Assembly: GCA_965246715.1 (NCBI GenBank)
Contig: CBDFFH010000020.1
Location: 96,001-160,000, forward strand
Length of the DNA stretch: 64,000 nucleotides
Origin: Chamaesiphon sp.
Lineage (GTDB): Bacteria; Cyanobacteriota; Cyanobacteriia; Cyanobacteriales; Chamaesiphonaceae
Direction: 5' to 3'
The notes beneath the pieces were generated by a model. It was not told the origin of the DNA. It saw only the letters and a program-made list of their open reading frames with translations, and searched no databases. Position numbers and translations under genes: made by a program. Shown here piece after piece: positions 11,867 to 61,301 of this stretch. The stretch's first letter is position 1. Each line of letters starts with the position of its first letter.

Positions 11867-12520
11867 ATGACATCCGATCGTCACGTTACACTGTTTCATT
11901 CACCAAACACGCGCTCTTCTGGGGCACTGACCCTGCTTAAAGAACTCAATGCTGATTTTGAATTGCACGTCCTCAATCTGAAGGCAAACGAACAGCGTGG
12001 AGCTGAATATCTAGCCATTAATCCAATGGGTAAAGTACCAGCGATAAAACATGGTGATGAATTGATTACTGAGCAGGTAGCTATCTTTTTATACCTTGCG
12101 GATCTGTATCCTGAAGCCAATTTAGCACCCGCGATCGGCGAACCGCTGCGGGGTACATATTTGCGCTGGATGGTCTATTATGGTTCCTGTTTCGAGCCAG
12201 CAATCGTCGATCGAGCGCAAAAAAATGCGCCAGCACCGCCTGCGATGTCGCCTTACAGTGACTACGATACGATGTTGAGTGCGTTGACCGTTGGCGAAGC
12301 CTCTCGGAACGAGAATCGATTATCCCAAGGAGATTACTTTCTGGGCGACAAATTTACTTCCCTAGATGTACTTTGGGGACATGCATTGAATTGGGTGACA
12401 ATGTTTAAGCTGGTACCAATGCTGCCTGTAATTAAAGCCTATATCGATCGGATTAATACTCGCCCATCCGTGGTGTGGACGAGAGCAAAAGATGCTGAAA
12501 TAGCTGCCAGTCAGAGCTAA
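11867..12520 (+). CDS. Glutathione S-transferase carrying an in-frame 8-aa micro-element insert
   Basis: HSPNTRS, INPMGKVPAI, TEQVAIFLYLAD. Confidence 0.9.
   Translation: MTSDRHVTLFHSPNTRSSGALTLLKELNADFELHVLNLKANEQRGAEYLAINPMGKVPAIKHGDELITEQVAIFLYLADLYPEANLAPAIGEPLRGTYLRWMVYYGSCFEPAIVDRAQKNAPAPPAMSPYSDYDTMLSALTVGEASRNENRLSQGDYFLGDKFTSLDVLWGHALNWVTMFKLVPMLPVIKAYIDRINTRPSVVWTRAKDAEIAASQS
12291..12314 (+). mobile_element. 24-nt double-hairpin micro-element in CG^ATCG
   Basis: cg|TT GGC-gaa-GCC TCTCG-gaa-CGAGA|atcg; removal restores ALTDRLSQ. Confidence 0.9.
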
Positions 12521-12808
12521 TCGATCGCTAGAGCCGCCAAGTTATCAAAATTTCTGGCGATCTCGCTGGTTTAGGATAATATACAGAAAGTTCCTATGAG
12601 GCATCAGGCTTTGGGTAGATATTCTTGGCAGATATCACCCAAGTTTTCAGGGAATCTGCGGAAACTTTCCGTCTAATAAATAATTCGACTGCTTCGTTTT
12701 ACTAGTTAGGGCGAAGTTTGAAGATAGTTAGTGGTAGACAGGATAGTGTGTGAATCAGGATCTTTTGTTAAGATGTAGCTGATAAAATGTTGACAGCAAT
12801 CGCGGAAT

Positions 12809-13300
12809 ATGGAAGCAGTGAATTTTTTCGTTCCTTCTCAAAGCTATCTTCAACGAGTAGCAGACCTATTTGAAGAGCATCGGAAAAAGATTCTCTACTT
12901 AGTCCCTACAGCGGAAGTAGAGCATATTGGAGCAACGTCAGTACCGGGGCTACTGACAAAGGGGGATTTAGATTTGCAAGTCTCGGTGTCGCCACAGGAG
13001 TTCGATCTAGCTGTTATTCTCTTGCAAACAGAATACTCAGATCATCAACTTGAAAATTGGACTGAATCGTTTGCCAGCTTTAAAGTTGAGAGAGACTCTG
13101 ATATCCCAGTGGGGGTGCAGTTAGTGATTCAAGGTTCAGAAAGCGATATCTTTGTCAAAAGTCGGGAATTGTTGCTTGCACAGGCAGAAAGGGTAGAAGA
13201 ACTCAATCGATTAAAGCAATGTCATTCAGGTGGGGATATGGATACCTACATCAAAAGCAAAGGTGAGTTCTTCACAGTGCTCCTTAAGAATAGTGTATGA
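12809..13300 (+). CDS. GrpB (UPF0157) nucleotidyltransferase-fold protein
   Basis: VEHIGATSVPGLLTKGDLDL, Y...KGEFF. Confidence 0.85.
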   Translation: MEAVNFFVPSQSYLQRVADLFEEHRKKILYLVPTAEVEHIGATSVPGLLTKGDLDLQVSVSPQEFDLAVILLQTEYSDHQLENWTESFASFKVERDSDIPVGVQLVIQGSESDIFVKSRELLLAQAERVEELNRLKQCHSGGDMDTYIKSKGEFFTVLLKNSV

Positions 13301-13471
13301 AATCGCAGTCGAACAATCCCGTTGCACACCGACCGTTCAACCGCTTGGCGATCGTGCCGGGAACTACGCACTATGACATCTTAGCAACTACAGCAGTTGC
13401 CAATCTTGTCGCTTCTTTCTTAGCTGCACCGCCAGTAATAGAGAACTAGTTCTCCTTAACTCGATCGAGAT

Positions 13472-13570
13472 CGATTCGCACGGCAATACCCCGATGACAT
13501 TGAGGGCTATATAGATGGTAAGGATGGATTTATCAAAGAGATCGATAAAAAAGCACGAGTGTGGCGACGA
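13472..13570 (+). pseudogene. C-terminal fragment of a second GrpB-family gene
   Basis: Hand translation RFARQYPDDIEGYIDGKDGFIKEIDKKARVW; no start codon. Confidence 0.6.
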
Positions 13571-13663
13571 CTAGTCGGTGAATGCGGCGATCGGTTCTAT
13601 CTCCGAGCGATCGAATCTATGGAAAATGTCATGGTAAACCTCCGATCGAATATGTGAGCCGAT

Positions 13664-14314
13664 CTATAATGTTTCTAAGACTTCTGACTTGGGGAATCTG
13701 ACTTTGGCCAGTGTTGCATACTTATCCGCTTCAGACCGATAGCCAGCCGCACAAGCGACAACTGTTGCAAAGCCTCTAGCCGAAAGTCCCAGTACCCGAT
13801 CGTAATTGATAGGTTCGATTCCTTCCATCGGGCAGGTGTCCACACCGAGTAAGGCCGCACTAGTCATAAAGTTTCCCAGTGCGATGTAAGTTTGGCGCGT
13901 TGACCACTGATTGATACTAAAACTGCGCGCGCCATCCACCAAGTCACTAACGATCGTCTGCCGATAACCTGCGAGGGTATCGATACTACCGCCCCGAACT
14001 TCAGCAATACGGTGCATAAACCGATTGACATCCTCAGCAGTGAAATTCTTTTTAATTGCGAACACGACATAATGCGAACAGTCGGTAACTTGCGACTGAT
14101 TCCAAGATAAAGGCTGGAGTTGCTCTTTGAGTTCTGGGCTGGTGATAATTAGAAATTTCCAGGGTTGTAGTCCATAGGAAGATGGCGTTAACACTAGGGC
14201 ATCTTCTAAAGCTGTCCAGATTTCTGGAGCGATCTTCTTGGCTGGATCGAATTGTTTGGTGGCATATCGCCAGTTGAGATGTTCGAGTAAATCTGTCGTA
14301 GTGATGTGCTGCAT
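13664..14314 (-). CDS. Nitroreductase (NfsB-like NAD(P)H oxidoreductase)
   Basis: WRYATKQFD, TPSSYGLQPWKF, LGVDTCPMEGI. Confidence 0.92.
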   Translation of the reverse strand: MQHITTTDLLEHLNWRYATKQFDPAKKIAPEIWTALEDALVLTPSSYGLQPWKFLIITSPELKEQLQPLSWNQSQVTDCSHYVVFAIKKNFTAEDVNRFMHRIAEVRGGSIDTLAGYRQTIVSDLVDGARSFSINQWSTRQTYIALGNFMTSAALLGVDTCPMEGIEPINYDRVLGLSARGFATVVACAAGYRSEADKYATLAKVRFPKSEVLETL

Positions 14315-14739
14315 TTGAATATCAGGTTAGAGTTCTGGTGGCGATCGTCAGCATCGGTGTAGACCTCTTTAGATTAACGCAAGCTTAGCTTGGCGATAGT
14401 GTGGCATCTGTAAAATGCTCGATCGCAGTATCCTCACACAACACGCACACCGCAATTAGCCAGGAAGAGAGATCCGGTCGTGGTAGCGTCTGTTGCCCAC
14501 TCATCCATGTTGCTCTCGATCTGCTGGGTGTCTATTTAGCAGCTTCAAATCCTGCTAGTACAATTTTGCCCCGTGCCTTACCGCTTTCTATCAGCGTGTG
14601 AACCTGTTTGAGATTGGCAGCATCAATCGGCGAATACTGCTCTGTCATCGTTGTCCGCAGAATGTCCGCATCGACTAGGCGCGAGACTTCATTGAGGAGT
14701 TTGCCCTGCTCGGCGAGATCGGGGGTATTAAAGATCGAT

Positions 14740-14763
14740 TCTCATTCTGAGAGGCTCCGCCAA
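14740..14763 (-). mobile_element. 24-nt double-hairpin micro-element
   Basis: cg|TT GGC-gga-GCC TCTCA-gaa-TGAGA|atcg on the minus strand. Confidence 0.9.
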
Positions 14764-15169
14764 CGGGTGAACATTAGTTCCCAATGCACCGATACAGACT
14801 TACGTTTAAATCGGTTGATATCCAGCACAGCCGGATCGTCGATGAGTCCAAACCGCCCTTGGGGTGCGATGAGTTCGGAAATCTCATCGAGATGGCGATC
14901 GGTTTGAGTTGTCGAAAAGACGAATGCAGGTGCGCCCAATCCCAGCTTGGCAACCTGTTCGGCAAGGGGTAAGGTATGGTCGATAATGTGATGTGCGCCC
15001 ATTTCTTTGACCCAAGCTACTGTCTCCGCTCGTGAGGCGGTGGCGATAACGGTCAAATCGGTCAAGGCACGCGCTATTTGGATCGCGATCGAGCCAACAC
15101 CGCCAGCTCCACCAATAATTAGAATTGCTGGAGCAGCTCCAGGTACAGCCTTCTTCACATCTAATCGAT

Positions 15170-15193
15170 TGCCGAAGGCAGGCCAAAGGCCAT
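15170..15193 (-). mobile_element. 24-nt double-hairpin micro-element, 4+4 stem variant
   Basis: + strand cgat|TGCC-gaa-GGCA GGCC-aaa-GGCC AT|cg; removal restores MLFDRLDV. Confidence 0.85.
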
Positions 15194-15683
15194 CGAATAA
15201 CATTTCCCAAGCGGTAATCGATGTCAGGGGCAATGCGGCAGCAGCAGCCCAATCTAGTGTCTTCGGTTTCGTACCGACGATCCGCTCGTCCACGAGATGA
15301 TATTCGGCATTGGTACCAGGTCGCCCAATTGCCCCTGCATAAAATACTTCATCCCCAGGTTGAAACAATGTTACCTCCGGCCCAACCGCAGTCACAATCC
15401 CGGCAGCATCCCAACCCAATACTTTCCAGTTTCCCGCTTCCGGTTTGGCACTGAGCCGAACTTTAACATCGACAGGGTTGACAGATATAGCTTTAACCTC
15501 GACGAGCAGATCTCGTCCGGTGGGTGTTGGCGTTGGTAGCTTGATATCGACTAGGGCTTCAGGGCGATCTATGATACCAGGCTGTTGAAAACCAATTGCA
15601 CGCATGTTTGACCTCTTAATGTGCTATTCACCTATGCTAGGTTTTACGATCGGTTAAGTAAAGTACGCACATTTTTTGTACAT

Positions 15684-15701
15684 AGTATCAAAAAGGATAC
15701 T
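15684..15701. promoter_or_regulatory. Palindromic operator between the ADH and HxlR genes
   Basis: AGTATC-N6-GATACT just upstream of the HxlR start. Confidence 0.55.
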
Positions 15702-15705
15702 GTCA

Positions 15706-16082
15706 ATGACTAAAATTCGACATTCTCGGCTCGATTGCAATCCTGGCTGTTCGGTTGAGGCGACGATTAGCTCGATCGAGGCAAGTGGAAATGCGTTATC
15801 TTATTTCATCTATTAAACGGGACATTACGCTTTAACGAACTGCGGCGGCACGTACCCGAAGTCACACAGCGAATGCTGACTAATCAGCTTCGAGAACTGG
15901 AGGTAGATGGGTTAATCGTGCGAAAGGTCTACCCACAAGTTCCGCCCAAAGTAGAGTACAGCATTTCGCCATTGGGACGTAGTTTAGAACCCGTACTTCT
16001 GGGGTTGAAAGATTGGGGGGATGAAAATATTGGTCTGTTTGGTCAACTCGCTAACGAGTCGCCATCTCCGGCAAGCGACTAG
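15706..16082 (+). pseudogene. HxlR family winged-HTH regulator, frameshifted near 15780
   Basis: MTKIRHSRLDCNPGCSVEATISSI, then another frame GKWKCVILFHL..MLTNQLRELEVDGLIVRKVYPQVPPKVEYS. Confidence 0.85.
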
Positions 16083-16253
16083 CAGCCAACGTTAACTCGA
16101 TCCCTCGATCGTCGATAGTTCAGATGGCGCAGGAATGCGATCGTTTCAATTGCTCGTTACGAGCTTCGATGACATGAAAGCCGAGCGTCGCTTGAGCATA
16201 GATGCTGATTCGACTCGGCTGTCGTGAAATGGTCGCTTAGTATAACCTCTCAG

Positions 16254-17630
16254 TTAGAAACGACAAGCATCAACAAAATTACTCATTCTAGATTGAATAT
16301 CGATAATCTGATCGATCCATTCATTTATAGGTTGTACACTTAAGGGAATTGTGTTGTTTGTAATCGACACAACACACTCATCTCCTAAAACTATTGGAGG
16401 AAGTATCATTGATGTTCTATTGAAGTTTTTTATGGACAAAATATTCTGTCCCCAAACTCCTCTCTCAATTAAATTTTTTCTTCCTACTGAGAGTAAGAGT
16501 CTTAGTCGTTCTGAATATCTCCCCTGTAAAATGCCACTTTCTAACTTTTCTAATTTAGCTTCGACTAAATGCTTAATTTTTTCTAAGTCAGGAAGTCCAG
16601 CATTTTTTAGGGATTCTTGAAGCCACTCTTCAACATGGATATTATCTCGATATTTAGCAGCTTGTGTAGCGATAATAAAAAATGCGAATCCAGGATCTGC
16701 CATATCTTTAAAAGATTGTATTCTTTCACCCCAAACATCATAATCTTTTGGTACATTCAAAGAATGAAATAGCTCTTCAGGTAAATTAAGACAGAGAGTA
16801 GCTAATGCAGAAGAAAATTTATATGCTTCAATAGTTTCGCCGATCCCAATTGAATTAGCTAAACAGTGGGCTGCGACTGAGTAAATTGCTAGTTCAGGGT
16901 TGTATAAATTTTGCAATCTTTCTTTCTCAATTCTAGATTTTTCTACTAGTCTATAATTTTCATCAAGAAATGAAAGCCCCTCTTGTATGACTTGCAACTC
17001 CGCGTATGTAGCTGTAACTTCAGTTAATGAAGTCATACTGAAAGGCACACGAATAATACGTTCATCAGATTTGTAGAACGTAGTGAAAAGAATAGGTCTA
17101 TCTTTTCTAGGCGTACCATCAGCACCAAATTCAACACCAGTAGAATATCTGTAGTGCCAAGTCTTACCAATACAATTATTTAAATTAACATAGTATTTTT
17201 CGGTATAGTAAGTTGAAAGTCTGGCTCTGGCTCTCTCAGAATTAGCACTTACTATTCTATGAAACTCTTGTTCATTTTGATTAGTCCATGCGTTGATGGC
17301 ATTATAAATAAAGATTAACTGCTTTTGCCCCCAGAGAGTAGATGTATGATCTAACCAGTGTGTTAGCTCATGTGTACAGGTAGAATAAAATTTTACTATT
17401 GAATTGTGATTTGCTTGCAGCACATTTTTTTGTGAGTTTAAGTCTTCATTCCTGAAATGATTAATGCTTTTAAAAAGCTGATTAAAAGTTTGCATTTCTA
17501 AATAGTCAAGACAAACTATTTGTGAAAGGTCGTCATAAGATCCGATCGTTTCAAGATTGGCAAATATTCCAAATTTCCTAGCATAATTATTAAGGTTTTG
17601 AACACTTCTTCTGTTTTTAGATTCGACCAT
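16254..17630 (-). CDS. AT-rich hypothetical protein with an HExxH metallopeptidase-like motif
   Basis: 458-aa ORF, THELTHWLDH and a later TEVTATYAE; visibly AT-richer than the flanks. Confidence 0.7.
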   Translation of the reverse strand: MVESKNRRSVQNLNNYARKFGIFANLETIGSYDDLSQIVCLDYLEMQTFNQLFKSINHFRNEDLNSQKNVLQANHNSIVKFYSTCTHELTHWLDHTSTLWGQKQLIFIYNAINAWTNQNEQEFHRIVSANSERARARLSTYYTEKYYVNLNNCIGKTWHYRYSTGVEFGADGTPRKDRPILFTTFYKSDERIIRVPFSMTSLTEVTATYAELQVIQEGLSFLDENYRLVEKSRIEKERLQNLYNPELAIYSVAAHCLANSIGIGETIEAYKFSSALATLCLNLPEELFHSLNVPKDYDVWGERIQSFKDMADPGFAFFIIATQAAKYRDNIHVEEWLQESLKNAGLPDLEKIKHLVEAKLEKLESGILQGRYSERLRLLLSVGRKNLIERGVWGQNILSIKNFNRTSMILPPIVLGDECVVSITNNTIPLSVQPINEWIDQIIDIQSRMSNFVDACRF

Positions 17631-17761
17631 AACTAATTTTGCTAATTCTTGGATATATACAACAGCATTTTATCACGCCTGTAAAAACTACCTTATTGCT
17701 TTGCACCTGGAGTTACAGCAAATCTCGATCTTAAATATATTACTAACATCATCCCGTACAG

Positions 17762-17863
17762 CTAGATATCGATCGCGCCTAATGCAGTCAGAGTAGCTTG
17801 CTGTGCCGCTGTCAATCCGGTTGTGCCCCGAATATTCAGCTTTTCGGACGATCGATCGACTCC
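17762..17863 (-). pseudogene. Relic C-terminal tail of an NB-ARC/WD40 protein
   Basis: DRSSEKLNIRGTTGLTAAQQATLTALGAIDI* versus [31 protein letters not shown] of the 22507-26124 protein. Confidence 0.7.
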
Positions 17864-18011
17864 GAATGGTTGAGAAAGTAACCCGCGATCGCATTATCGT
17901 GAAAAAGATCACCATCACAACCGCTTAAATTGGTGCTTAACTTCTAATCTTGACTGGTGTAGACCGAGTGTAAATGACAGACTTTTAATAGTCCGCAGAT
18001 CCAGACTCGAT

Positions 18012-18035
18012 TCGGCAGAGCCGACGTTACACGAT
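18012..18035 (-). mobile_element. 24-nt double-hairpin micro-element, sequence-divergent variant
   Basis: + strand cgat|TCGGC-aga-GCCGA CGT-tac-ACG AT|cg. Confidence 0.8.
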
Positions 18036-18056
18036 CGCACACACCCCGGAGAGATT

Positions 18057-19145
18057 ATGAACCTTTGCCAAAGCCTTCGCCATTACGGGCAATCTGTCTG
18101 GCTCGACGATCTCGAACGGAATTTGACGATCGCGGGTCAGTTACAGCGATCGATCGACGATGGATTGCGCGGCTGGCTCTCAAATTTTACGAGCTTAGAA
18201 CAGGCAATTCGATCGGGAGATTACGATCGAGACTTTCAAGCGATCTCGCATTATTCAGATTCAGATCCAACCTCGATCTATGAATATCTGACGATTCAAG
18301 ATATGCAGTTAGCCGCCGATCTGATGAAAGCGGTATACGATCGCACCCATGCTACCGATGGTTTTGTCAACTTAGATTTGTCGCCCTATGTGGCGATCGA
18401 CACTCAGGCAACTTTAGCTGAAGCCAGACGGCTGTGGCAAGCAGTAGGTTGGTCTAATTTAATGCTCAAGATTCCCGCAACTGCGGCTACACTACCAGCG
18501 ATCGAACCACTCATCGCTGAGGGTATCAATGTTAATGTGACCTTACTTTGTTCCCAAATTGTCTACGAACGGGTTGCAGAGGCATATTTGAGGGGTCTAG
18601 AAGCCTTATCGATTGAGGGGAAAGAAGTCAGCAAAGTTGCGAGTGTGGCTAGTTTTTCAATCGGTCGTATAGATGAAGCGGTTGCTAACTTGAAAACCAC
18701 CGCACAGCAACAAGCCTTACGAGAGTCCCTGCTAGGTCGTGTCGGCACCGCTCAAGCAAAGGTCGTATATCGGCAATATCAAGCCATCTATCAAACCGAT
18801 CGCTGGCAGTCGTTAGCGCGGCTGGGGGCGCAACCACAGCGATTGTTATGGGATCTTACCAACATTGATTCGGCTCGATTTTCTGCCCAGCATTACATCG
18901 AATCCCTTGTCGGTGCAGGCACAGTAATAGCACTATCTCCACAGATTATCGAAAATTACGATCGATTCAGCCCGACACAAGCTAGTCTCACCGCCGATGT
19001 CGATCTTGCCCGACAAACGTTAGAGCATCTGGAGCAGATTGTGTCGCTAGAGACGATCGCAGATCGATTACTGGCAGAGGAATTACAACGATCTCAGGAT
19101 GCTTACCAACAATTGTTGGGCACAATTCTCCAACGGAGCAACTGA
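18057..19145 (+). CDS. Transaldolase family protein (divergent)
   Basis: GQSVWLDD, DGFVNLDLSP, NLMLKIPAT, GINVNVTLL, SVASF, PQRLLW. Confidence 0.8.
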   Translation: MNLCQSLRHYGQSVWLDDLERNLTIAGQLQRSIDDGLRGWLSNFTSLEQAIRSGDYDRDFQAISHYSDSDPTSIYEYLTIQDMQLAADLMKAVYDRTHATDGFVNLDLSPYVAIDTQATLAEARRLWQAVGWSNLMLKIPATAATLPAIEPLIAEGINVNVTLLCSQIVYERVAEAYLRGLEALSIEGKEVSKVASVASFSIGRIDEAVANLKTTAQQQALRESLLGRVGTAQAKVVYRQYQAIYQTDRWQSLARLGAQPQRLLWDLTNIDSARFSAQHYIESLVGAGTVIALSPQIIENYDRFSPTQASLTADVDLARQTLEHLEQIVSLETIADRLLAEELQRSQDAYQQLLGTILQRSN

Positions 19146-19171
19146 GCAAAAGTATAAATCAGAAAACCAGT

Positions 19172-20290: not shown

Positions 20291-20449
20291 TGATGCTCAT
20301 GGTAAAATTACATGGAGGAAGGTTTAGATCGCTAATAGAGTAGGAAATTTTATTTTCTACGTTCAAAAATCTCGTTCAAGATCGAATACTTGTATAGCTT
20401 AAAGCTAAAATATTATTCACCCAAGAGCGTAGATTTAACAGCTTAGAAG

Positions 20450-25500: not shown

Positions 25501-26124
25501 GGGTAGTGCGATATCCTCTCCGAGTGCCCGCAATAACAAGGGCAGTACGCTCTCTAACCACTCTTCAAACGGTGGGGCGTTTTGGAGCGATCTCCATACC
25601 ACTACCTCAAACTCCGATCCAATTTCCCGTATCAGTTTCGCGGCTAATGTGCTTTTGCCCATCCCACCAATTCCCAGAAGTAGGACTAGACGACACTGTT
25701 CCTCTATTACCCATCGCTTGAGCTGCATGATGTCTTCATGCCGTCCACAGAAGATCGAAGTATCGATAATAGCGTTTCCACAATCTGTCTGGGGTTGATG
25801 CGATCGATTTTCATGCTGGGAGGCTTCGCCAACGATTATCTCCTCATCATTATTTGGTCGAGTATAATCGCTTTTGCTTAACTCCAATCCAAAGGCGCGG
25901 AATGCCCACTGTAATGATTGCTTATCTACAGGTTCCGATCGTCCTAACAGTTTGGCGATCGTATTGAGGGATAATCCCATCCGTTCGCTGAGTTCTTCGA
26001 GCGTAAATCGATCTCCGGCATTCTCAGCCAACTCCGCCCGTACTTTTGCCGTTTGAAATTTGTCCCAACCCTGCGCTGTCAGAATGACTCCTCTGTAGCG
26101 TTTAGCTTTTTGTAGTTGCATCAA
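22507..26124 (-). CDS. STAND protein: N-terminal HTH-like, NB-ARC/NACHT NTPase, pentapeptide repeats and about 14 WD40 repeats
   Basis: GIGGMGKS Walker A, LLILDNAE Walker [15 protein letters not shown], repeated GH..VxSVxFSPDG..LASGS.D..IRLWD. Confidence 0.93.
24213..24236 (-). mobile_element. Degenerate 24-nt micro-element in a WD40 loop (VGVDLPSA insert)
   Basis: 8-aa extra segment in FSP[..]GQML; starts cg|TTGG, second hairpin partly retained. Confidence 0.45.
25809..25832 (-). mobile_element. 24-nt double-hairpin micro-element (in frame, VGEASQHEN)
   Basis: cg|TT GGC-gaa-GCC TCCCA-gca-TGAAA|atcg; second stem imperfect. Confidence 0.85.
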
Positions 26125-30123: not shown

Positions 30124-30147
30124 TCTCATTCTGAGAGGCTTCGCCAA
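30124..30147 (-). mobile_element. 24-nt double-hairpin micro-element (intergenic)
   Basis: cg|TT GGC-gaa-GCC TCTCA-gaa-TGAGA|atcg. Confidence 0.9.
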
Positions 30148-43474: not shown

Positions 43475-43494
43475 AGTATCTCCCAACGACAAAA

Positions 43495-48800: not shown

Positions 48801-51800
48801 GGCATTGAACTTGACTGAAAAATTAGATTCTAAAAGACTTAAGTCAAGGGTAATTCAGATTGTCACAGGGCATCTCATGCATTGTAAAGATCGGATCGAT
48901 CGAACCTTATCCTTGCTTCATGAGGGATACGAGACTGCGCTAGAAACCGGAGATTTAGTATATTGTGGATACTGTGCACTATTTGATTGTTTGCATTTGT
49001 ATTTTGCTGGCTCAGAACTAAGCAAGATTGAATCTAAAATTAAGTTTTACAGTAATATTTTGGCTCCACTTAAACAGGAAAATACTTTAAATTATCTTGG
49101 CAAATTGCAGCAGGTTATCTACAACTTAATAGAGCAGTTAGAAAATCCAGGTTGTCTACTTGGTAATAATTATAGCGAACAGCAACTCTTGCCAAGTTAT
49201 CTTGCAGCAAACGATCGATGTAATCTCTACCATTTATACCTAGACAAGCTGATCCTTAGCTATTTATTTGCAGATGCCCCACAAGCCGTAGAGTATGCTG
49301 CTCAAGCTGAACTTTATTTAGATGGAGCATTAGGAACTTTTTCAACACCTGTATTTTATTTCTACGATTCTTTAGTGCAGATGAAAGTATACCAGTCTGT
49401 TTCGCTCTCAGAGCAGGAGCTTCTGCTGCGTAAAATAATCAGCAATCAGGAAAAGATGCAGAGATGGGCAGATTCCGCTCCAACAAATTTTCAACATAAA
49501 TACGATCTGATTGCAGCAGAAAAAGCGCGAATCTTAGGGCGTACAGATGAAGCAATGAGCCTGTATGAGCGGGCAATTGCAGGAGCAAAAGACAACCAAT
49601 TTATTCAAGAAGAGGCGTTAGCATCTGAATTGGCAGCTAAGTTTTACCTGGTGCGTGGGTTGGCGAGAATTGCTCAAATTTACATCAAAGAAGCGCACTA
49701 CTGCTATAGACGCTGGGGAGCGACTGCGAAGGTCAAAGATTTAGAAACTCGTTACCCACAGTTCTTTCCTCAATCGTCGGGCATGGCTAACACGCCAATC
49801 CACGCTACTGCTGAAACCACTTCTAATCACTCACCCACTGCCTTCGATTTAGCTACAGTGATGAAAGCATCTCAAGCGATTTCGAGCGAAATTGAACTGG
49901 AGCAGTTACTCACTTCTTTGATGCAGATCTTAATCGAGAATGCTGGCGCACAAACCGGATTTCTGATTCTGGAAAACGCAGGTGAATGGACGATCGAAGC
50001 TGCTTGTGAACTCAATGATGGCGATCGGGTCTGCGCTACGCGAGTACTACAATCGCTTCCAATGGCAAATCGCTTGCCCGAATCAGTGATTCAGTATGTC
50101 ATCCGAACTCATGAATCTGTCATCTTGAATGATGCAACTTGTGAAGGTAATTTTATTAATGAGCCATATATTCAACACAATCAAACTCGATCGCTGCTGT
50201 GTTTGCCACTGCTGAATCAAAGTAAGCTGGTTGGCGTGTTGTATCTGGAGAATCAATTAGCAACTGGAGCATTTACACCCGATCGAATGCAAGTTTTGAA
50301 GCTATTATCAACCCAGGCAGCGATCTCGATCGAAAATGCTAAACTCTACTCAAAGTTGCGCGCTAGCGAAAGCAAAATGACTCAATTCCTGGAAGCCATT
50401 CCGGTGGGAGTTGGGATCGTTGATGCGAATGGTCGCCCTTACTATGCCAATCAACGTGGTATTCAGCTTATGGGCAAAGGGATCGATCCTGCCGTAGCCA
50501 CAGAGCAAATCGCCGAGGTTTACCAATTTTATGTGACGGGAACGGATCGAATCTATGCGACTGAAAACATGCCAATTATCCGAGCGTTGAGCGGCGAATG
50601 CACCACGGTTGACGATGTAGATATTCGCCAGAACAATGCAACCATTCCAATTGAGGTATGGGGAACTCCCATCTTTGATGAACAGGGCAAGGTGGTTTAT
50701 GCGATCGCAGCTTTTCAAGACATCACCGAGCGCAAACGAACAGAACACCTCTTAGCCAATTACAATCGCACCTTAGAGCAACAGGTGGTGGAACGAACGG
50801 CGGCATTACAGAAAAGTGAAGCGACACTGCGCGATCGAGAACAGCAATTACGACTGATTGCTGACGCTCTACCAGCTCTGATTGGCTATGTGGATGCCAA
50901 TCGATGCCATCAATTTATCAACCGCACCTATGAGGTTTGGTTTAGTCGTAGTTGTGATGAGATTTTGGGTAATTCTGTTCGAGAACTCCTTGGTGAAACA
51001 GTTTATCAAAAGATTGAGCCGTATATCGATCGAGTGTTTGCAGGTCAAACTGTAACTATGGAGACAGAAATTCCCTTTGAACTTGGTAAAAGATCCATCA
51101 GTTCTACCTTCATCCCCGATTTCGTTGGCGGAGCCTCTTCCCTGGAGAATCGCCACGATCGAGTCAGAGGATTCTACAGTTTAATCACAGACATTAGCGA
51201 TCGCAAACAATCAGAAGAGGTGTTGCGCCAGTCCGAGGCTCAGTTTCGGGAACAGGCAATCCTTTCCGCTTTTCGCGCCGAGTTAGACAATGCCCTTGCT
51301 CAAAGTGATGATTTGCCATCAATGCTGCATCGCTGTGCGGAAGCCGTCGTTAAGTACTTTAATGCAGCATTTGCTCGGATTTGGACGCTAAATAAAGACA
51401 AAATTGTTTTGGAGTTACAGGCCAGTGCAGGGATGTATACCCGTCTTGACGGCACCTACAGTCGAGTTCCTGTAGGTAGCTTCAAAGTTGGACGAATTGC
51501 TGAGGATCGCTGCCCTCTGTTGACCAACAATGTGTTTGATGAGTCAATTATCGATCGAGAATGGGCAGAACGAGAAGGCATGGTGGCATTTGCGGGCTAT
51601 CCCATACTGCTAGATGAGCAGCTTGTTGGAGTTATCGCGATGTTTACTCGCCACCCCATTCCGCTGTCCAACTTTGAGGCGTTGGAGTTTGCAGCTCGCG
51701 AGATTGGATTGGGAATTAAACGCAAACAGGCAGAAGTAGCGTTGCAAGCTTCTGAAGCAGAACTTCGTGCACTCTTTTCAGCAATGCCCGATCCTCTCTT

Positions 51801-53348: not shown

Positions 53349-53351
53349 CAC

Positions 53352-53727: not shown

Positions 53728-54454
53728 AAATGAAACTCAATGACCCAGAAACTTGGCTCAAGGCAGATGCGACACTGGAAATTGACGAGCATCCACAACT
53801 AGGGCAAGTCAGAGTCCAACAATGGCAGGACTTACATTTCTATCGGGCGGCTGGTCATCTGGTCAATTTGATTCTGATTGAAAGAATCAAACCCATGTCC
53901 AACGGTCAGCCCTTTCCGCCCTTGTGGTTAGCTTGGGTGGGTGCTAGAACCTTACCCTTAGAAACTGTTTGGTTTAAGTATTTGCGTCGCTTTGGGGTGG
54001 ATCATTGGTATCGGTTTGCGAAACAACGATTGCACTGGACATTGCCGAATTTGAGAACTCCTGAGCAATCTGAGCGATGGAGCGATTTGATGCCATTGAT
54101 GAGTTGGCAACTCTGGTTGGCTAAAGATCTCGTAGTGGAAACTAGACTGCCATGGCAACCTGCTACTATTAATTTAACCCCTGGACGTGTTGCCCAATCT
54201 ATGTTTTCAGTTTTGGTGGCGATTGGAACTCCGGCTCAAACACCCAAACCACGCGGAAAATCCCCTGGCTGGACTAAAGGAAACACCCGTACTAAGCCAC
54301 CTCGTTATCAGACTGTTAAAAAACGGGTTTCTCGACCTAAAAAAGTCCCGAAAGTCGCTGCTTAATCTTCCGTCTCTTCCCTTTTTTGCCAACACTTTGT
54401 CTTCAATTGACGGCACCCATTTTTTCTGCACCCATTTTTTAGTCTAAACTCCAG
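53728..54454 (+). mobile_element. 3' fragment of an IS4/IS701-clan element (transposase C-terminal half plus one end)
   Basis: YLRRFGVDHWYRFAKQRLHWT, PKPRGKSPGW; N-terminus missing; putative end ..TAGTCTAAACTCCAG. Confidence 0.75.
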
Positions 54455-54457
54455 CCA

Positions 54458-54646
54458 TTGACAGTTCGCGAGTTAGAGGTATTGCAACTGATTGTTGACG
54501 GACACGATAATTCTGCGATCTCTAGGAAGCTCTACATCACTACAGGTACGGTGAAGACCCACGTGCGCGGTGCTTTGAGAAAACTCTGTGCAAACAATCG
54601 TACTCAGGCAGCGATTCGCGCACTCCGCTCTGGTCTTGTTCGCTAA
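54458..54646 (+). pseudogene. Isolated LuxR-type HTH fragment
   Basis: LTVRELEVLQLIVDG..TVKTHV..RTQAAIRALRSGLV, abutting the IS end. Confidence 0.75.
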
Positions 54647-54956
54647 ACAAGGTATCGAACATCAACACGATCGCTATTGAGAAGATCTCGATTTCTTCAG
54701 CAATTTACCCAAGATCGCCAAATTCATATTGTCTCAGGAACGGATGAGGAAATCGATCGAGCGCAACAGGTTCTAAAGAACGCAGAGCTTGAAATCGATC
54801 GAGCAGTTGCGGCCTAATAATGAGTCGAGGATTTTCGATCGTTGGCACAGGAGGCTCAATTGTGAATCTCGTGAGGACGATCGATCGAACGGTAAATGTG
54901 TAGTTTTAAGCATCAAGAAGCAAAATTTAACCCCTACTATCATCTTGGAGGAAAAA

Positions 54957-56846
54957 ATGGCAAAAGTTGTTGGCATCGATCTAGGAACCACAAATTCCTG
55001 TATTGCAGTAATCGAAGGCGGACAACCGCTGGTCATTGCAAACGCAGAAGGACAACGGACTACCCCTTCAGTTGTTGCCTATACAAAAATAGGCGATCGC
55101 CTTGTGGGTCAAATCGCGCGGCGGCAAGGCGTGATGAACCCTGAAAACACATTCTATTCTGTGAAACGATTCATCGGTCGGAAGTACGAGGAAGTCGAGC
55201 AGGGAGCTAGCGAGGTTTCCTACAAGGTGTTGCGGGATAGCACTGGGAACGTCAAAATTGATTGTCCCGCGCTCAAAAAACAGTTTGCACCCGAAGAAAT
55301 TTCGGCACAGATTCTGCGGAAATTGGTAGACGATGCCAGTCAATATCTGGGCGAGAAAGTGACTGAAGCCGTCATCACCGTTCCCGCTTATTTCAACGAC
55401 TCGCAGCGGCAAGCAACTCAAGATGCAGGCAAAATTGCCGGATTAGAAGTGCGTCGCATTATCAACGAACCGACTGCTGCTGCACTGGCATACGGTTTAG
55501 ATAAAAAAAGCAACGAGACGATTCTCGTATTTGACTTAGGGGGTGGAACCTTCGACGTATCCGTACTCGAAGTGGGCGATGGGGTGTTTGAAGTCCGAGC
55601 GACTAGTGGCGATACGCACTTAGGCGGCGATGACTTTGATAAAAAAGTTGTCGATTGGATCGCAGGCGAATTTCAGCGGAACGAAGGCATCGATCTCCGC
55701 AAGGATAAGCAAGCCTTACAACGGTTAACTGAAGCGGCTGAGAAAGCCAAAATCGAGCTTTCCAGCACCACGCAAACCACGATTAATCTCCCCTTTGTGA
55801 CTGCGACGCAAGCAGGCCCGAAGCACCTCGACTTAACGTTAACCAGAGGTCAGTTCGAGCAGATGTGTGAAGATTTGCTCGATCGTTGCCGCCTTCCAGT
55901 CGAACAAGCCCTTAAAGATGCCAATCTCACCAGTGCGGCTCTCGATGAAGTGATTTTAGTCGGTGGATCGACTCGGATTCCGGCGGTACAACAACTCGTG
56001 CGGCGGATGACTGGCAAAGAACCAAATCAGGGGGTGAATCCCGATGAAGTGGTGGCAGTCGGAGCGGCGATTCAAGCCGGAGTGCTCGCGGGTGAAGTGA
56101 AAGATATCTTGCTACTAGATGTCACGCCGCTTTCTCTAGGCGTGGAAACAATGGGCGGTGTGATGACGAAAATTATTCCCCGCAACACGACGATCCCCGC
56201 TAAAAAATCAGAAACGTTCTCGACGGCAGTAGATGCTCAACCGAATGTCGAAATTCACGTTTTACAAGGGGAGCGGGAACTCGCTAACGACGACAAGAGC
56301 CTGGGCACGTTCCGACTGGATGGCATCCCACCTGCTCCGCGCGGAGTGCCACAAATCGAGGTGACGTTTGATATTGATGCCAATGGACTGTTGGCGGTAA
56401 CGGCGAAAGATCGGGCATCGGGTAAAGAACAATCGATTACGATTACAGGTGCTTCTACGCTGGATAAAAGCGACGTGGAACGCATGGTGCGAGATGCTGA
56501 AACTCACGCGGAAGCAGATCGCCGTCGGCGAGAGCAAATCGATACCAAGAACAACGCGGATGCACTCGCTTATCAAGCCGAAAAACAACTGCAAGACTTA
56601 AACGGAAAGGTTTCGGATGCCGATAAGCATCGGGCGCAAGCATTGATTCACAGTCTGCGTGAAGCGATCGATCGAGAGGACTACGATCGCATGAGCGTGC
56701 TGACTCAGGATTTGCAACAAGCTTTGATGCAAATTGGTAGCTCTGTTTACGCTCATGCAAACGCCACAGGTACTCCAGATTCTGCTCCTCAAAGCACCAC
56801 TAGCGGAAATAGTGACGATGTAATCGATGCTGATTTTTTGCTATAA
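54957..56846 (+). CDS. dnaK: Chaperone DnaK (Hsp70)
   Basis: [46 protein letters not shown] before ATG 54957. Confidence 0.96.
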
Positions 56847-56939
56847 CATCAAATCTTCCGACCGAGTATGGGCTTGCATTCCGCACTCGGACTCAATCGT
56901 TAACCTAGCGGCTCGTAACTCGCGATCGAGAGACCAGTA

Positions 56940-57908
56940 ATGCCAACTGCAACAGATTTTAAAGACTACTACGCCACTTTGGGAGTCAGCAAAACCGCAA
57001 CTCCCAAAGAAATCAAGCTGGCTTACCGCAAGCTGGCTCGTAAGCATCATCCTGACCTCAATCCCGACAATAAGGATGCAGAGGCAAAGTTCAAGGACTT
57101 AAATGAAGCGAATGAGGTGCTTTCCGACCCAGAGAAGCGACAAAAGTACGATCGGTTCGGTCAATACTGGAATCAGGCAGATCGGGGCGAAACTTCGCCA
57201 TCTAGCCAGAATTATCGGGCTACCTCTGAAGACTTCGATCGGTATACCGACTTTGATTCATTTATCAACGATCTGCTGGGTGGGCTAGGCAATCGAGGGC
57301 AATCGACACGCAGAACCTACAGCGATCGAACTGAGCCAGGAGCAGCTTGGGACGGATTCCGCACTCAAGCTCCCTCAGATACGGAAGCTGCGATCGCGCT
57401 CACTTTTTCTGAAGCCTTTCACGGTGTTCAAAAGCATCTGCAACTAGACGATGAAACTATTAAGGTTCGGATTCCCGCAGGTGCAAAACCAGGGAGTCGC
57501 ATTCGGATTAAGGGTAAGGGTCGTCTTAGCCCATTTTCGCAGCAGCGCGGCGATTTGTATTTGACGATCGACCTCTTGCCGCATCCCTTCTTCCGCTTTG
57601 AAGGAGATGACCTCGTTTGCGATCTGCCGATTCGACCCGATGAGGCAGTTTTAGGGGCGAACATTAGCGTCCCCATCCCCGATGGCAGCGTGAGTGTCAG
57701 AGTGCCCAAAGGTACGCGATCCGGTCAATCGCTAAGACTGCGCGGCAAAGGCTGGGTCGTACCAAACGGGAAACGAGGTGATTTATTTGCCAAACTTCAA
57801 ATCGTCACTCCTAAGGATCTCAGCCCGATCGAGCAGGAATACTACGAGAAAATTCAGTCAACGACCAGCTTTAACCCGCGTGCTTCATTGGAGGAAATCA
57901 AGCTATGA
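56940..57908 (+). CDS. cbpA: DnaJ-class co-chaperone without zinc finger (CbpA-like)
   Basis: J domain with HPD, C-terminal DnaJ_C, no CxxCxGxG repeats. Confidence 0.88.
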
Positions 57909-58189
57909 CTTTCAGGCTTTCCAGGATTGTCGTTTCGCATGAGGGCGATCCACTCTACAGCTTTGAATATGCTGCATCGCTCGCCGAAACTTCCATCACA
58001 GTGGTGGAAGCTTGTATTGAACTAGGCGCGATCGAAGCGGTCGGCTCGATGCTACATGCTCGCGAAATTACTCGCATCGCTCAGATTCAGCGGTTGCGTC
58101 AAGACTTGGGATTAAACCTAGTTGGAGCAGCAATGGTGCTAGATATGGCACAGGAAATTGCTCGATTACGGGCACGACTCAAGGTGTGA
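57905..58189 (+). CDS. cbpM: Chaperone modulator CbpM (MerR-like)
   Basis: [23 protein letters not shown] overlap with cbpA. Confidence 0.82.
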
Positions 58190-58233
58190 AGTGACTCTCT
58201 TCCTCGAACCTAAAATCTAAGTTTTTCTAACCG

Positions 58234-58273
58234 TAACCAGCCAGTTAATTTCCCAAAAATAACTGGCTGGTTA
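58234..58273. terminator. Hairpin after cbpM
   Basis: TAACCAGCCAGTTA..TAACTGGCTGGTTA. Confidence 0.6.
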
Positions 58274-58413
58274 TCGTGCCTTGCAAACGCAAATCGAACA
58301 ACTGATTCATCAAATTTAGACGCTTCCCTCAGAATTAGATGTGTTTGATGAAATTTGGTTCTTAACAACATGGAAGAAATTCTTGTGACATTTAATGTGG
58401 GTAAAGTGGCAGT

Positions 58414-58600
58414 CATACCTGTCAAATTTGTCAGTCGATCGGTTGTTGAATTTGTCAGCTTATTTTCTGAGATCTTTCTCAGCGACAAAATCAACTGAAC
58501 CCTCTAAATTAAGAGTATGCAACAGACAACAGAACGATATGGGTTTACCCAACTGTGAAAGAAGTTTTACAGAAATCGTCGGTCTCCACCTGATGCATTC
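58414..58600 (+). promoter_or_regulatory. Duplicated promoter/leader, copy 2, with three boxes at 24-bp spacing
   Basis: Boxes at 58419, about 58443 (half-degenerate) and 58467. Confidence 0.75.
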
Positions 58601-58618
58601 CTTTCATCGGAGGTGCCT

Positions 58619-59155
58619 ATGAATCTCAGCGATCGCGATCGACTGTTTGTCCCGATTTCAGCACGAGATCGCCTTCAAGGATTGATGGATGCTTCCGTGG
58701 CACTCGTTGAATATGGTGACTACCAATGTCCCACTTGTGGCGAAGTGTACCGATTAATCGAGGCGATCCAGCAACAGGTTACTGACTTGTGTTTTGTCTT
58801 TCGTCATTTTCCACAGTCACAAATACATCTCTATGCTCTCCGCGCCGCCGAAGCGGCTGAAGCGGCGGCAGCACAAGGTCGATTTTGGCAGATGCACGAT
58901 GTTTTATTCGCCCATCAACAAGCGTTGGGAAATGATTATCTGGTAGAATATGCCGATCGAATCGGACTCGATATTTCTCAATTTTTGCAAGATATATCCA
59001 GTCAATTACATATCGATCGCATTAATAAAGATATTGAAAGTGGTTTACAAAGTGGCGTAACAATTGCCCCAGCATTGTTTATTAATGGCATCCGCTATCG
59101 CGATCTCTGGAGCATCAATCGGTTGATGGCAGCCATTGTCCCCCTAAGTCATTAA
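58619..59155 (+). CDS. DsbA family thioredoxin-fold protein
   Basis: EYGDYQCPTCG, FRHFP, AAEAAAAQGRFWQMHD, P..FING. Confidence 0.9.
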   Translation: MNLSDRDRLFVPISARDRLQGLMDASVALVEYGDYQCPTCGEVYRLIEAIQQQVTDLCFVFRHFPQSQIHLYALRAAEAAEAAAAQGRFWQMHDVLFAHQQALGNDYLVEYADRIGLDISQFLQDISSQLHIDRINKDIESGLQSGVTIAPALFINGIRYRDLWSINRLMAAIVPLSH

Positions 59156-59284
59156 ACTGCTTGCTCTCCATCCCCAATTAACCAAGAAACTCTACACGAT
59201 CGATCTCACTCAAGCAGCAATTCGAGCATTTCGCGTCAGGATTGTTAGCTAGATCGGCTCAATTAATTCAGCAAAAATGCAGAG

Positions 59285-60115
59285 GTGTTAACAGTGGTAG
59301 TTTTTACATATAAAAAAGTTCGCAGACGGTTGCTGTTGCTACTCGCATTCAGCGTTTTAGTTGGTGTATTGATGCGTTCCGAAGTAGCCATTTCAACGCA
59401 ATTATCCCAAATTTCTAACTCTAAGCCTTCGATCGTGCTCGTGCATGGTGCCTATGCTGATGCGACATCCTGGCAACACGTCATTCCACTGTTGGAACGG
59501 GATGGCTATAACGTCTCCGCCGTGCAGATTCCGCTCACCTCACTTGCTGATGATGTTACAACGACGAAACGGATGATTGATGCTCAGAAGGGTTCTGTCG
59601 TAGTGGTTGGACATTCCTATGGTGGAAATGTGATTACGGGTGCGGCGGCTGGCAATTCGCGGGTGAAGGCATTAGTTTATGTCAATGCTTTCGCACCGGA
59701 TGCAGGTGAAAAGACGAGCGATTTGAATGGCAGATACGCAGCACCTCCGATTAGCAAGGCAATTGTGTCCGATCCGGCCAACTTTCTCTATGTCGATCGG
59801 CAGAAGTTTCACAATCTTTTTGCCCAGGACGTATCGGAGACTGAGGCGCGGGTGATGGCAGCAACTCAAAAGCCGATCGCTAGCGCAGCTTTCGACCAAT
59901 CAGTGAATGCCATCGCCTGGAAGACAATTCCTTCCTGGTACCTCGTGACTCAAAGCGATCGAGCCATCAACCCTAAGCTTCAGCGATTTATGGCTCAACG
60001 AATTGGTGCTAAGACAACTGAAGTCAACTCCAGTCATGTTCCGTTTATATCTCATCCAAAAGAGGTTACTAAACTGATCGAAGCGGCTGCAACTGCCCCT
60101 GTAAAGAAGTCCTAG
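59285..60115 (+). CDS. Alpha/beta hydrolase with signal peptide
   Basis: LVHGAYAD, VGHSYGG, DRAI, SSHV. Confidence 0.88.
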   Translation: MLTVVVFTYKKVRRRLLLLLAFSVLVGVLMRSEVAISTQLSQISNSKPSIVLVHGAYADATSWQHVIPLLERDGYNVSAVQIPLTSLADDVTTTKRMIDAQKGSVVVVGHSYGGNVITGAAAGNSRVKALVYVNAFAPDAGEKTSDLNGRYAAPPISKAIVSDPANFLYVDRQKFHNLFAQDVSETEARVMAATQKPIASAAFDQSVNAIAWKTIPSWYLVTQSDRAINPKLQRFMAQRIGAKTTEVNSSHVPFISHPKEVTKLIEAAATAPVKKS

Positions 60116-60307
60116 CCGAAAATTAATCGATGGTGTTGAGTCGATCTCGATCTGCCATGCCGACACTTACAAACATCACTTATTCCAGGAGGTAGGATCG
60201 TGCCGATTCAAAATACCAACAAAATTACTAAAGTTGATGGCTCTCAGCCCTTGCTGCATCAGCATGGACATGAAATTCAGCAGTATGGCAAACTGCGAGA
60301 TCTGCCG

Positions 60308-60331
60308 TTCGCGAAGCGTCTCGGAACGAGA
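60308..60331 (+). mobile_element. 24-nt double-hairpin micro-element
   Basis: cg|TT CGC-gaa-GCG TCTCG-gaa-CGAGA|atcg; removal restores DLPIAL. Confidence 0.9.
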
Positions 60332-60505
60332 ATCGCGCTCGACCCTAATGCCCGCACCGAAAGCTGTACGTTAGTCAACCAAATTTTGGCAGACACCATC
60401 ATTCTCTACCACCTCTACAAAAAGCATCATTGGTTGATGCGCGGACACACGTTTTATCAACTGCATCTGTTACTTGACAAACATGCCAGCGAACAGCTTG
60501 AATCG

Positions 60506-60530
60506 TTAGCGTAGCCTCTCGCTTGCGAGA
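60506..60530 (+). mobile_element. 25-nt micro-element variant (stop plus frameshift)
   Basis: cg|TT AGC-gta-GCC TCTCG-cttg-CGAGA|atcg. Confidence 0.88.
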
Positions 60531-60577
60531 ATCGATGCAATGGGAGAACGGGTACAAACACTTGGAGGAGTGGCGAT

Positions 60578-60601
60578 TCCCCTTCAGGGAGGCTTCGCCA
60601 A
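60578..60601 (-). mobile_element. 24-nt double-hairpin micro-element in a full HIP1 site
   Basis: gcg|TT GGC-gaa-GCC TCCCT-gaa-GGGGA|atcgc. Confidence 0.88.
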
Positions 60602-60611
60602 CGCCGACCCG

Positions 60612-61150
60612 TGTCACTTGCAGCATAAAATGGCGGAAAAAGCCAGGTTATGCTTCACAGAGCGAAGTACCTTGGGGAGTAAAGATAGAAGTGGAAGTAG
60701 TTCACAGAAAGAATTTTAGCCAAATGGATTGTGTTCTTCATCTTCCTGATTGAGACTTTCAGGCGATCGATCGCTTAAATAAACCAGCCCTGCTAAAAGC
60801 AAAAGTTGGGATGAGCACAACAAATAGATGTAATCAGTTCAATAACTGTTTATCTTTAAAAAATCTTGCACAGCAAGGGTTTGAGTTATTTTGCATCAGA
60901 ACGATTTAATTTTATCTTGATAAAATGAATCATATATTGTCTGAGAGTTCTCAGAAATAGCTGCTTTTTAGTGAGATTTTGTACCCAATTCGCTAAAAGA
61001 ACTCATCGCCTTGTTATGCTTCATTTTTAGAACTCAACGCCAATTTATGATACAAAACTCGATCGAATCGATCGCCTAGAATGACCTGTTTTCGTTTCTA
61101 GACCGCCAAGTTATGATTCACAAATCCGCCATTTTATGCTGCAAGTGACA
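60612..61150. mobile_element. 539-bp non-autonomous Tn7/Tn5053-like mini-transposon
   Basis: Perfect 26-bp IR TGTCACTTGCAGCATAAAATGGCGGA, TGT..ACA ends, 5-bp TSD ACCCG, repeated internal CGCC-N4-TATG(C/A)T sites. Confidence 0.88.
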
Positions 61151-61277
61151 ACCCGCGCCATGTAGCAGAAGTTACCAAGATTAAGCGTCCTCCCAATGGC
61201 GTTGAAGAAGTGCCCGTGATGCTATCGCGCTTGCTCGAAGCACATGAATTAATTATTGGAGAACTCAGGGATGCGAT

Positions 61278-61301
61278 TCTCGTTCCGAGACGCTTCGCGA
61301 A
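61278..61301 (-). mobile_element. 24-nt double-hairpin micro-element, identical to 60308-60331 in inverted orientation
   Basis: Removal restores RDAIDKTA. Confidence 0.9.

Follow-up and report, generated by a model that had tools for sequence, protein, structure and literature searches.

A 64,000-nucleotide (nt) stretch of a Chamaesiphon sp. genome (positions 96,001 to 160,000 of contig CBDFFH010000020.1, assembly GCA_965246715.1; hereafter the window) contains twelve copies of a non-coding micro-insertion element, most often 24 nt long, that can fold into two adjacent hairpins and lies at the bond CG^ATCG (the caret marks the junction) within the core of the highly iterated palindrome HIP1. 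Comparison with orthologous sequences revealed that these insertions are real and recent and that the element family is active. The elements are of the small dispersed repeat (SDR) kind. They may be moved as folded single-stranded DNA (ssDNA) by an HUH-type enzyme acting in trans, a reading which we prefer tentatively and rate somewhat below an even chance.

Two-hairpin insertions at CG^ATCG

All eleven copies listed in a preliminary description of the window were found at the positions given there, and a twelfth, at 7477–7500, had been overlooked. As had been claimed, CGATCG is regained upon removal of every window copy. The window genome (6.12 Mb; 28,367 CGATCG sites) was subjected to the structural scan proposed in that description, in which CG-N24-ATCG places were tested for 3-bp plus 5-bp hairpins, with eleven other spacings between 22 and 33 as a control. 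The 3+5-stem form was identified at 129 of 9,558 places, compared to 2–16 at each other spacing; when only Watson-Crick pairs were accepted, the respective counts were 102 and 0–9. The 129 copies represent 107 distinct sequences. A scan for the hairpin pattern without imposed CG/ATCG flanks yielded 162 matches, 149 of them preceded by CG and 106 located at CG^ATCG, whereas an order-5 Markov genome gave 5 matches, none at CG^ATCG. The shuffle, spacing and Markov controls were thus all exceeded, and the pattern is not, as a refutation of the family would have it, merely as frequent as in shuffled sequence.

The proposed covariation of the stems was borne out by an analysis of 92 distinct elements, anchored only on the fixed letters of hairpin 1 and with no pairing imposed: each of the five variable stem pairs (82–95% Watson-Crick) lay above the maximum of 2,000 column shuffles. 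Since such shuffles disregard relatedness, this test demonstrates pairing, not independent events.

The element is composed of a 2-nt lead, a 3-bp hairpin with a GNA loop and a second hairpin of 4–5 bp stacked directly on the first. Among 202 copies measured between CG and ATC, 126 are 24 nt long, followed by 22 nt (59 copies), 25 nt (9), 23 nt (7) and 26 nt (1); the originally described length is therefore the commonest, but 76 copies depart from it. Loop 1, which was not imposed on the search, is GNA in 191 of 220 copies, within GC-GNA-GC; GTA occurs in 84 of the 220, and GAA, GGA and GCA are also used freely. In most copies, hairpin 1 corresponds to the DNA mini-hairpin motif GCGNAGC. The lead is TT in most copies (an AT-CGC form is present in 11 of 237), nearly all have G^TT or G^AT at the left junction, and the last base of the element is A. 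The view that structure and not sequence is conserved applies to hairpin 2, the only part that varies freely, but not to the first 11 bases, which are nearly fixed. The 3+5 architecture calls for two qualifications among the eleven copies: only three of five stem-2 pairs form in copy 25809, and copy 15170, whose GNA loop lies on the + strand reading, has a 4+4 form.

The target is YCG^ATCG, and the HIP1 octamer is not favoured. A T or C precedes CG more frequently than in the background (p=1e-5), the 3′ flank A-T-C-G is kept in 218–233 of 267 copies per position, and the octamer served as target for 8 of 106 copies, compared to 9.9% of background sites. The HIP1 core given as target in the preliminary description is thus correct with respect to the CG^ATCG bond, but the target here is the hexamer after a pyrimidine, with no preference for the octamer. 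CG^ATCG is also only the main site: insertions were detected at CG^TACG and CG^ATCC, within other copies at the G of their GNA loops (nesting) and at two places in a TA-flanked miniature inverted-repeat transposable element (MITE).

This MITE (~230 bp, with long terminal inverted repeats and a nested palindromic interior that holds the element and other SDR-like inserts) was seen on contigs C2, C12, C14–C16, C22, C29, C34–C36, C39, C41, C47, C51 and C52 of the window genome (G000), in which its end motif has ~200–240 matches. By passive amplification it gives rise to 22 element matches. A longer parent element was considered and rejected, as the MITE carries the 22 copies at CCCG^CACTT as passengers. 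No empty allele of its inner site was found in 39 genomes of the family (27 of the window's genus and 12 of the sister genus), and the site carries several fully paired hairpin-2 variants; some of the covariation may therefore be due to palindromes corrected in place or to repeated entry.

A 24-nt subfamily with a 4-bp stem and 4-nt loop in hairpin 2 (C2:238145, C5:244986, C9:56453, C20:17513 and C51:3893 of G000) targets G^A in hairpin loops, not CGATCG, and completes its stem with the A of the target. This suggests that hairpin 2 influences target choice.

The comparison with orthologous empty sites, also proposed earlier, covered ten of the eleven copies. An empty site, with no target duplication, was identified for seven of them, and no ortholog was retrieved for those at 18012, 25809 and 30124. 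Copy 12291 corresponds to a 24-nt gap in loci L009 and L010 (exact CG^ATCG) and in a paralog on contig C37, and a contig of sequencing run X4, ~97% alike, lacks exactly these 24 letters. The sites of copies 14740 and 15170 are empty in L002 (exact for 14740), L004 and L005. Exact empty sites for copies 60308, 60506 and 60578 are present in L210, and for the last also in L215, L216 and L217; at 60506 an X4 contig lacks 25 letters. Copy 61278 is matched by a 24-nt gap in L210, whose hexamer differs by one base. The empty alleles read AT, and the lead TT therefore belongs to the element; orthologs that keep the hexamer read CGATCG, which means that no target duplication took place. These results confirm precise insertion at CG^ATCG, in either orientation and without duplication of the target.

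Independent insertions were observed at or beside the same sites: a paralog on C37 holds a different copy in the same context as copy 60506, and genome G409 carries an insert at CG^ATCC. In single contigs of two runs, the 5′ part of the ferritin/Dps-like gene aligned with 51 (X3) and 25 (X4) gap letters and its 3′ part with 24 gap letters in both runs, with 12 and 18 other differing letters, respectively, in ~700. From these alignments, X3 and X4 are read as having retained one and two inserts, compared to four in the window. Since strains ~97–98% identical differ in filled sites, insertion must have been recent.

Distribution and genomic context

The strict 24-nt pattern was detected in 52 of 401 genomes of the phylum, representing 18 of 42 families, with zero matches in the control. 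Nostoc, Calothrix, Phormidesmis, Moorena, Limnospira and Prochloron are among the positive genomes, and Chamaesiphon accounts for 32 of the 80 loci listed. Of these 32 loci, 22 match the window genome, mostly at 72–87%, compared to 19 of the 48 others, mostly at 65–78%. The pattern was absent from the 29 searched genomes of family f25, which are small, and was not found in genomes related to the window at the level of phylum only; viral contigs gave no match to one strict pattern. A single strict match (L087) lies in a record of a Cyclobacteriaceae bacterium, for which transfer or a binning error is possible.

Within the family, a 13-base marker had 50–444 matches per genome in all 27 members of the window's genus, compared to 2–61 in the 12 genomes of the sister genus, which documents a genus-wide expansion. 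The sequence TCGATCGA occurs 1,460–2,410 times in four sister-genus genomes and 2,816 times in one member of the window's genus. Similar targets combined with few copies in the sister genus imply a lineage-specific factor.

The relation of the copies to genes was examined with a crude model of open reading frames (ORFs; longest non-overlapping ATG frames of 120 amino acids (aa) or more). Coding DNA is avoided, with 79 of 202 copies lying within ORFs compared to 72% of CGATCG sites. The 24-mers are more often intragenic (57 of 126) than copies of other lengths (22 of 76; p=0.026); the frame stays open in 55 of the 57 and is interrupted by a stop in 2. No orientation bias was observed in genes (24 sense, 33 antisense; p=0.29). 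The suggested seeding of proteins with 8-aa inserts thus has a basis in the 55 open-frame copies, but the 24-nt length looks tolerated in genes rather than required, and the 8-aa inserts do not look purposeful.

Copies are clustered. Adjacent sites are both filled 17 times (2.0 expected), with a few of the pairs in duplicated segments, and of 222 copies in 274 20-kb bins, 107 fall into the most densely populated tenth. Of the five large contigs with the highest density, four, that of the window among them, carry no tRNA, and in genome G425 two small replicons (~0.35 of 5.1 Mb) hold 24 of 87 copies, a density about five times higher. Relaxed selection accounts for part of this clustering, but site occupancy, 0.7–0.9% genome-wide, reaches only 1.6% in non-coding DNA, whereas all four coding sites of the ferritin/Dps-like gene are filled. 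Two related relaxase-primase modules, named by eye (G000 C9:9229-14148 and 95885-100535), each contain several inserts within genes.

Table 1. Copies of the element and a further insertion in the window (gene families assigned by Pfam where indicated).
Feature	Position	Strand	Remark
24-nt copy, AT lead, intergenic	7477..7500	+	twelfth window copy
24-nt copy, in frame in glutathione S-transferase gene (11867-12520), +8 aa	12291..12314	+	Pfam
24-nt copy in zinc-binding dehydrogenase gene; in-frame stop, frame shortened from 350 to 287 aa	14740..14763	-	Pfam
24-nt copy, 4+4-stem variant, in frame in the same zinc-binding dehydrogenase gene as copy 14740	15170..15193	.	
24-nt copy, AT lead, directly upstream of transaldolase-family gene	18012..18035	-	Pfam
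24-nt copy, decayed (stem 2 pairs 3/5), in frame in WD40-repeat gene	25809..25832	-	Pfam
24-nt copy, intergenic	30124..30147	-	
24-nt copy, in frame in kinase-AAA-GAF-PAS-histidine kinase gene	51125..51148	+	Pfam
24-nt copy in ferritin/Dps-like gene, site 1 of 4	60308..60331	+	
25-nt copy, frameshifts ferritin/Dps-like gene, site 2 of 4	60506..60530	+	
24-nt copy within full HIP1 octamer, ferritin/Dps-like gene, site 3 of 4	60578..60601	-	
24-nt copy, 3′ part of ferritin/Dps-like gene, site 4 of 4	61278..61301	-	
Unrelated 544-bp non-coding element with terminal inverted repeats, splits ferritin/Dps-like gene	60607..61150	.	

The 544-bp element has terminal inverted repeats of ~25 bp and 5 letters common to both junctions, and its three CGATCG sites are all empty. 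A 99% identical copy is present in genome G401, and the contigs of runs X1, X3 and X4 skip it.

Possible routes of movement

The working form of the element is probably ssDNA, as indicated by the GCGNAGC mini-hairpin, the lack of transcription bias, the entry of copies into hairpin loops of other copies (after G) and the plasmid bias. In its passages on the motif, PMC13037366 describes GCGNAGC as an unusually stable, nuclease-resistant DNA mini-hairpin, the corresponding RNA hairpins as much less stable (a value given for the tetraloop form) and tetraloop-form fragments as poor binders of single-stranded DNA-binding protein.

According to the preferred scheme, a strand would become single on the lagging strand or during conjugation or DNA uptake, and the two stacked hairpins would bring the ends of the element together, along with the target halves CG and ATCG. 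A strand-transfer enzyme encoded elsewhere, most likely an HUH (Y1) enzyme of the IS200/IS605 or REP-associated tyrosine transposase (RAYT) kind (REP, repetitive extragenic palindrome), would make cuts at CG^TT and A^ATCG, restore CGATCG by sealing and free a nuclease-resistant dumbbell, which would then enter another single-stranded CG^ATC site on the 3′ side of its G. The position of both ends side by side would suit cut-and-rejoin by an HUH enzyme, although the choice of this enzyme class is held a little more tentatively still. RAYT-like loci contain 8 copies in 45.6 kb, compared to 2 in 60 kb at IS200-like loci; both intact RAYT loci of the window genome have a copy nearby, at differing places, and 6 of 20 RAYT loci of the genus hold one.

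A number of observations weigh against such an enzyme. The other 14 of the 20 RAYT loci hold no copy, and the element could be tied to no enzyme gene. Y1 genes are present in 37 of the 39 family genomes, the element-poor genus included, and their presence does not set the two genera apart; genome G290 (99% complete, 92 marker matches) lists no intact RAYT-length match. Only one copy was found in 54 REPIN-like spans. Known Y1 enzymes, as outlined in the relevant part of PMC3479197, pick their target by the bases 5′ of the cut via a guide sequence; here conservation extends to both flanks of the target, and a conserved guide is not apparent. Extended palindromes are not enriched around the target (36 of 106, compared to 31%), and the idea of an extended hairpin as target was rejected. 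Folding energies calculated with ViennaRNA separate neither DNA from RNA nor one strand from the other, and neither support nor oppose the ssDNA form; a three-way junction with the flanks is the DNA minimum in only ~6 of 112 contexts. All 25 MITE-borne copies keep the insert, and no excision or circle junction was seen; the sequencing runs were compared as contigs, in which excision circles could not show.

Genes whose distribution might track the element, as suggested in the preliminary description, were sought, and none was found linked to the copies; the trans-acting enzyme stays conjectural. ORFs around 117 loci in many genomes included no recurrent recombinase, transposase or reverse transcriptase family (the largest clusters, judged by eye, were PAS-like, adenylation-like and glycosyltransferase-like), and clusters of at least three copies in the window genome have no neighbour gene in common. 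IS110 loci have a copy in 1 of 11 cases, and the element flanks neither of two small GIY-YIG genes nor a GxxExxY gene. The latter, at L206 (G000 C46:98328-98678), lies within its own inverted, internally repeated flanks, which are unrelated to the element.

A more specific proposal, on balance an unlikely one, is that an active and as yet undescribed cyanobacterial single-strand integrase, working chiefly on ssDNA that is incoming or belongs to plasmids, reads the 22–24-nt DNA dumbbell by its shape and places it scarlessly at CG^ATCG.

The main rival of the HUH scheme dispenses with a dedicated transposase. A host nuclease involved in HIP1/CGATCG-linked repair, restriction or uptake would nick CG^ATCG, a folded copy annealing by its CG and ATCG arms would be copied in, and the stem covariation would partly reflect template-switch correction of near-palindromes. 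We consider this unlikely, with about the same weight as the dedicated integrase. In its favour, cleavage at this bond is equivalent to cleavage at CGAT^CG on the opposite strand, the search for a linked gene was negative, and the four filled sites of the ferritin/Dps-like gene stand out from the genome-wide occupancy; moreover, the fully paired hairpin-2 variants at one MITE site indicate that compensatory change may arise in a passenger. Directed cutting at HIP1 is suggested in part of PMC4390886 as a partial explanation of SDR5, and natural transformation is stated in the text seen of bioRxiv 2024.09.10.611283 to be affected by HIP1 and its methylation. However, insertions also occur at sites other than CGATCG (GNA loops, CG^TACG, MITE ends), targets are plentiful in the sister genus, which presumably shares the repair genes yet has few copies, and the fixed GNA loop is left unexplained.

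Considerably less probable is a tyrosine recombinase or topoisomerase acting on the folded strand with a G^TT or G^AT crossover, as the integron integrase does on attC. Integrases with structure-defined single-strand substrates are known and provide a precedent, the left junction of nearly all copies would fit such a crossover, and the window genome contains 23 tyrosine-recombinase matches; yet the last base, A here and mostly C in the 21-nt insert of Nostoc, leaves no core base in common, and a copy within 2 kb was present at just 4 of the 21 recombinase loci checked.

Just as improbable, or slightly more so, is an RNA intermediate, in which a group II intron or retron enzyme would bring hairpin transcripts into the target by reverse transcription or reverse splicing. 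The lack of target duplication, the same fold predicted for RNA and 22 reverse transcriptase matches in the window genome are compatible with it, but GNA triloops are a DNA signature (according to the passages on them in PMC13037366), there is no transcription-strand bias, none of 12 reverse transcriptase loci has a copy within 3 kb, and 107 sequences among 129 copies speak against a master template. At least five reverse transcriptase frames, probably nested group II introns, lie within 20 kb at G000 C43:22760-42656.

That the element is not mobile at all, and arose by chance or by local mutation through HIP1 hairpin slippage, is extremely improbable: the AT-CGC form (11 of 237 copies) does start with the letters of HIP1 itself, but the TT start of most copies cannot be templated by the target, unrelated loci and 18 families share near-identical inserts, and chance is rejected by the shuffle and spacing controls. 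The scans and the empty orthologous sites already refute this reading.

Comparison with known systems

The class itself has been published, and the movement of repeats of 21–27 nt has been an open question since 2008. New are the range of 18 families, the genus-wide expansion, the looser YCG^ATCG target, the match of loop 1 to GCGNAGC and the clustering on plasmid-like DNA. The value of this lineage lies in an experimental handle on that question: with hundreds of copies, alleles that vary among strains at ~97–98% identity, and a copy-poor sister genus that has the targets, movement becomes testable, and the DNA-specific hairpin motif predicts what the substrate should be. Accessory genes, moreover, steadily receive 8-aa insertions, stops and frameshifts from the inserts. 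If the single-strand integrase were real, the smallest known mobile elements would have their enzyme, and for the first time a protein would be linked to a defined cut in HIP1; as hairpin 2 tolerates free sequence, the enzyme might also serve as a tool. In that case, the comparison of element-rich and element-poor sister genera would offer a direct way to find it.

Unlike integron attC sites, the present element does not regenerate its G^TT core at both junctions, the right junction being A^ATCG. It differs from MITEs in its ends (TT and A, without terminal inverted repeats) and in leaving empty sites without duplication. Hairpin 1 shares its motif with the d(GCGNAGC) mini-hairpin, which the passages seen of PMC13037366 place at phage origins and promoters; the string 'cyanobacteri' appears nowhere in that paper. 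REP/REPIN-RAYT systems also consist of small hairpin repeats and are proposed, in the sections consulted of PMC3116915 and PMC3479197, to move in trans as ssDNA by an HUH Y1 enzyme cutting after a dinucleotide. In contrast, the present element has no fixed GTAG tag, is frequent in genes, uses one precise palindromic target and does not appear to flank a RAYT gene densely; the REPs of the window genome are separate GTAGGG repeats. IS200/IS605 elements move as a single strand, with hairpin-defined ends, precise excision and no target duplication, and their TnpA fixes only 4–5 bases 5′ of the cut. Their non-autonomous derivatives resemble the present element in hairpin-defined ends and the lack of duplication, but the latter is far smaller and has both target flanks conserved.

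The small dispersed repeats of Nostoc punctiforme, SDR5 among them, were reportedly described by Elhai et al. in 2008 (Genome Res 18:1484), and the SDR4/5/6 group is said to be characterized by a two-hairpin fold with compensatory changes, lengths of 21–27 nt, no target duplication, nesting and residence in minitransposons. The present element fits this class in length, covarying two-hairpin fold, lack of duplication and nesting. A search of literature listings yielded no paper on SDR-like inserts in the window's genus or on their enzyme; a 24-nt form may be listed in the supplements of the 2008 work.

In the parts of the publications concerned, SDR5 is stated to insert between the third and fourth base of HIP1 (PMC4390886), to be 21 nt long with a function still called unknown in 2026 (PMC13756078) and, like other SDRs, to be confined to Nostocaceae, outside of which none was found (PMC5861425). 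Four Nostoc genomes gave 87–190 matches each to a pattern of HIP1 plus mini-hairpin. Most of the matches listed, from two of these genomes, represent an insert of 21 nt at the same bond. It has a 2-nt T-lead, a GGC-GNA-GCC first hairpin and, after a single spacer base, a second hairpin of 3 bp; a GNA loop is usual in both hairpins. Judging by its length and site, this dominant insert is inferred to be SDR5. The 24-nt form is present beside it in the same genomes. Nostoc genomes G438 and G441 contain 26–27-nt HIP1 inserts built on the same mini-hairpin, so that the family spans 21–27 nt.

The kinship to SDR5 proposed in the preliminary description is thus supported by the shared first hairpin and by the insertion bond (GCG^ATCGC), common to all 12 window copies and 106 of the 162 flank-free matches. 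The two differ in length (22–26 nt with a mode of 24, compared to 21 nt), in hairpin 2 (4–5 bp stacked on hairpin 1, compared to 3 bp after a 1-nt spacer), in target (YCG^ATCG, compared to the HIP1 octamer) and in range, the present element being found in 18 families and most abundant outside Nostocaceae, the limit set for SDRs in the passage of PMC5861425. The present element is very probably a relative of SDR5 and acts in the same manner; it appears to be a longer variant within the published SDR class, set apart from SDR5 by length, octamer use and range, and it may be one of SDR1–8.

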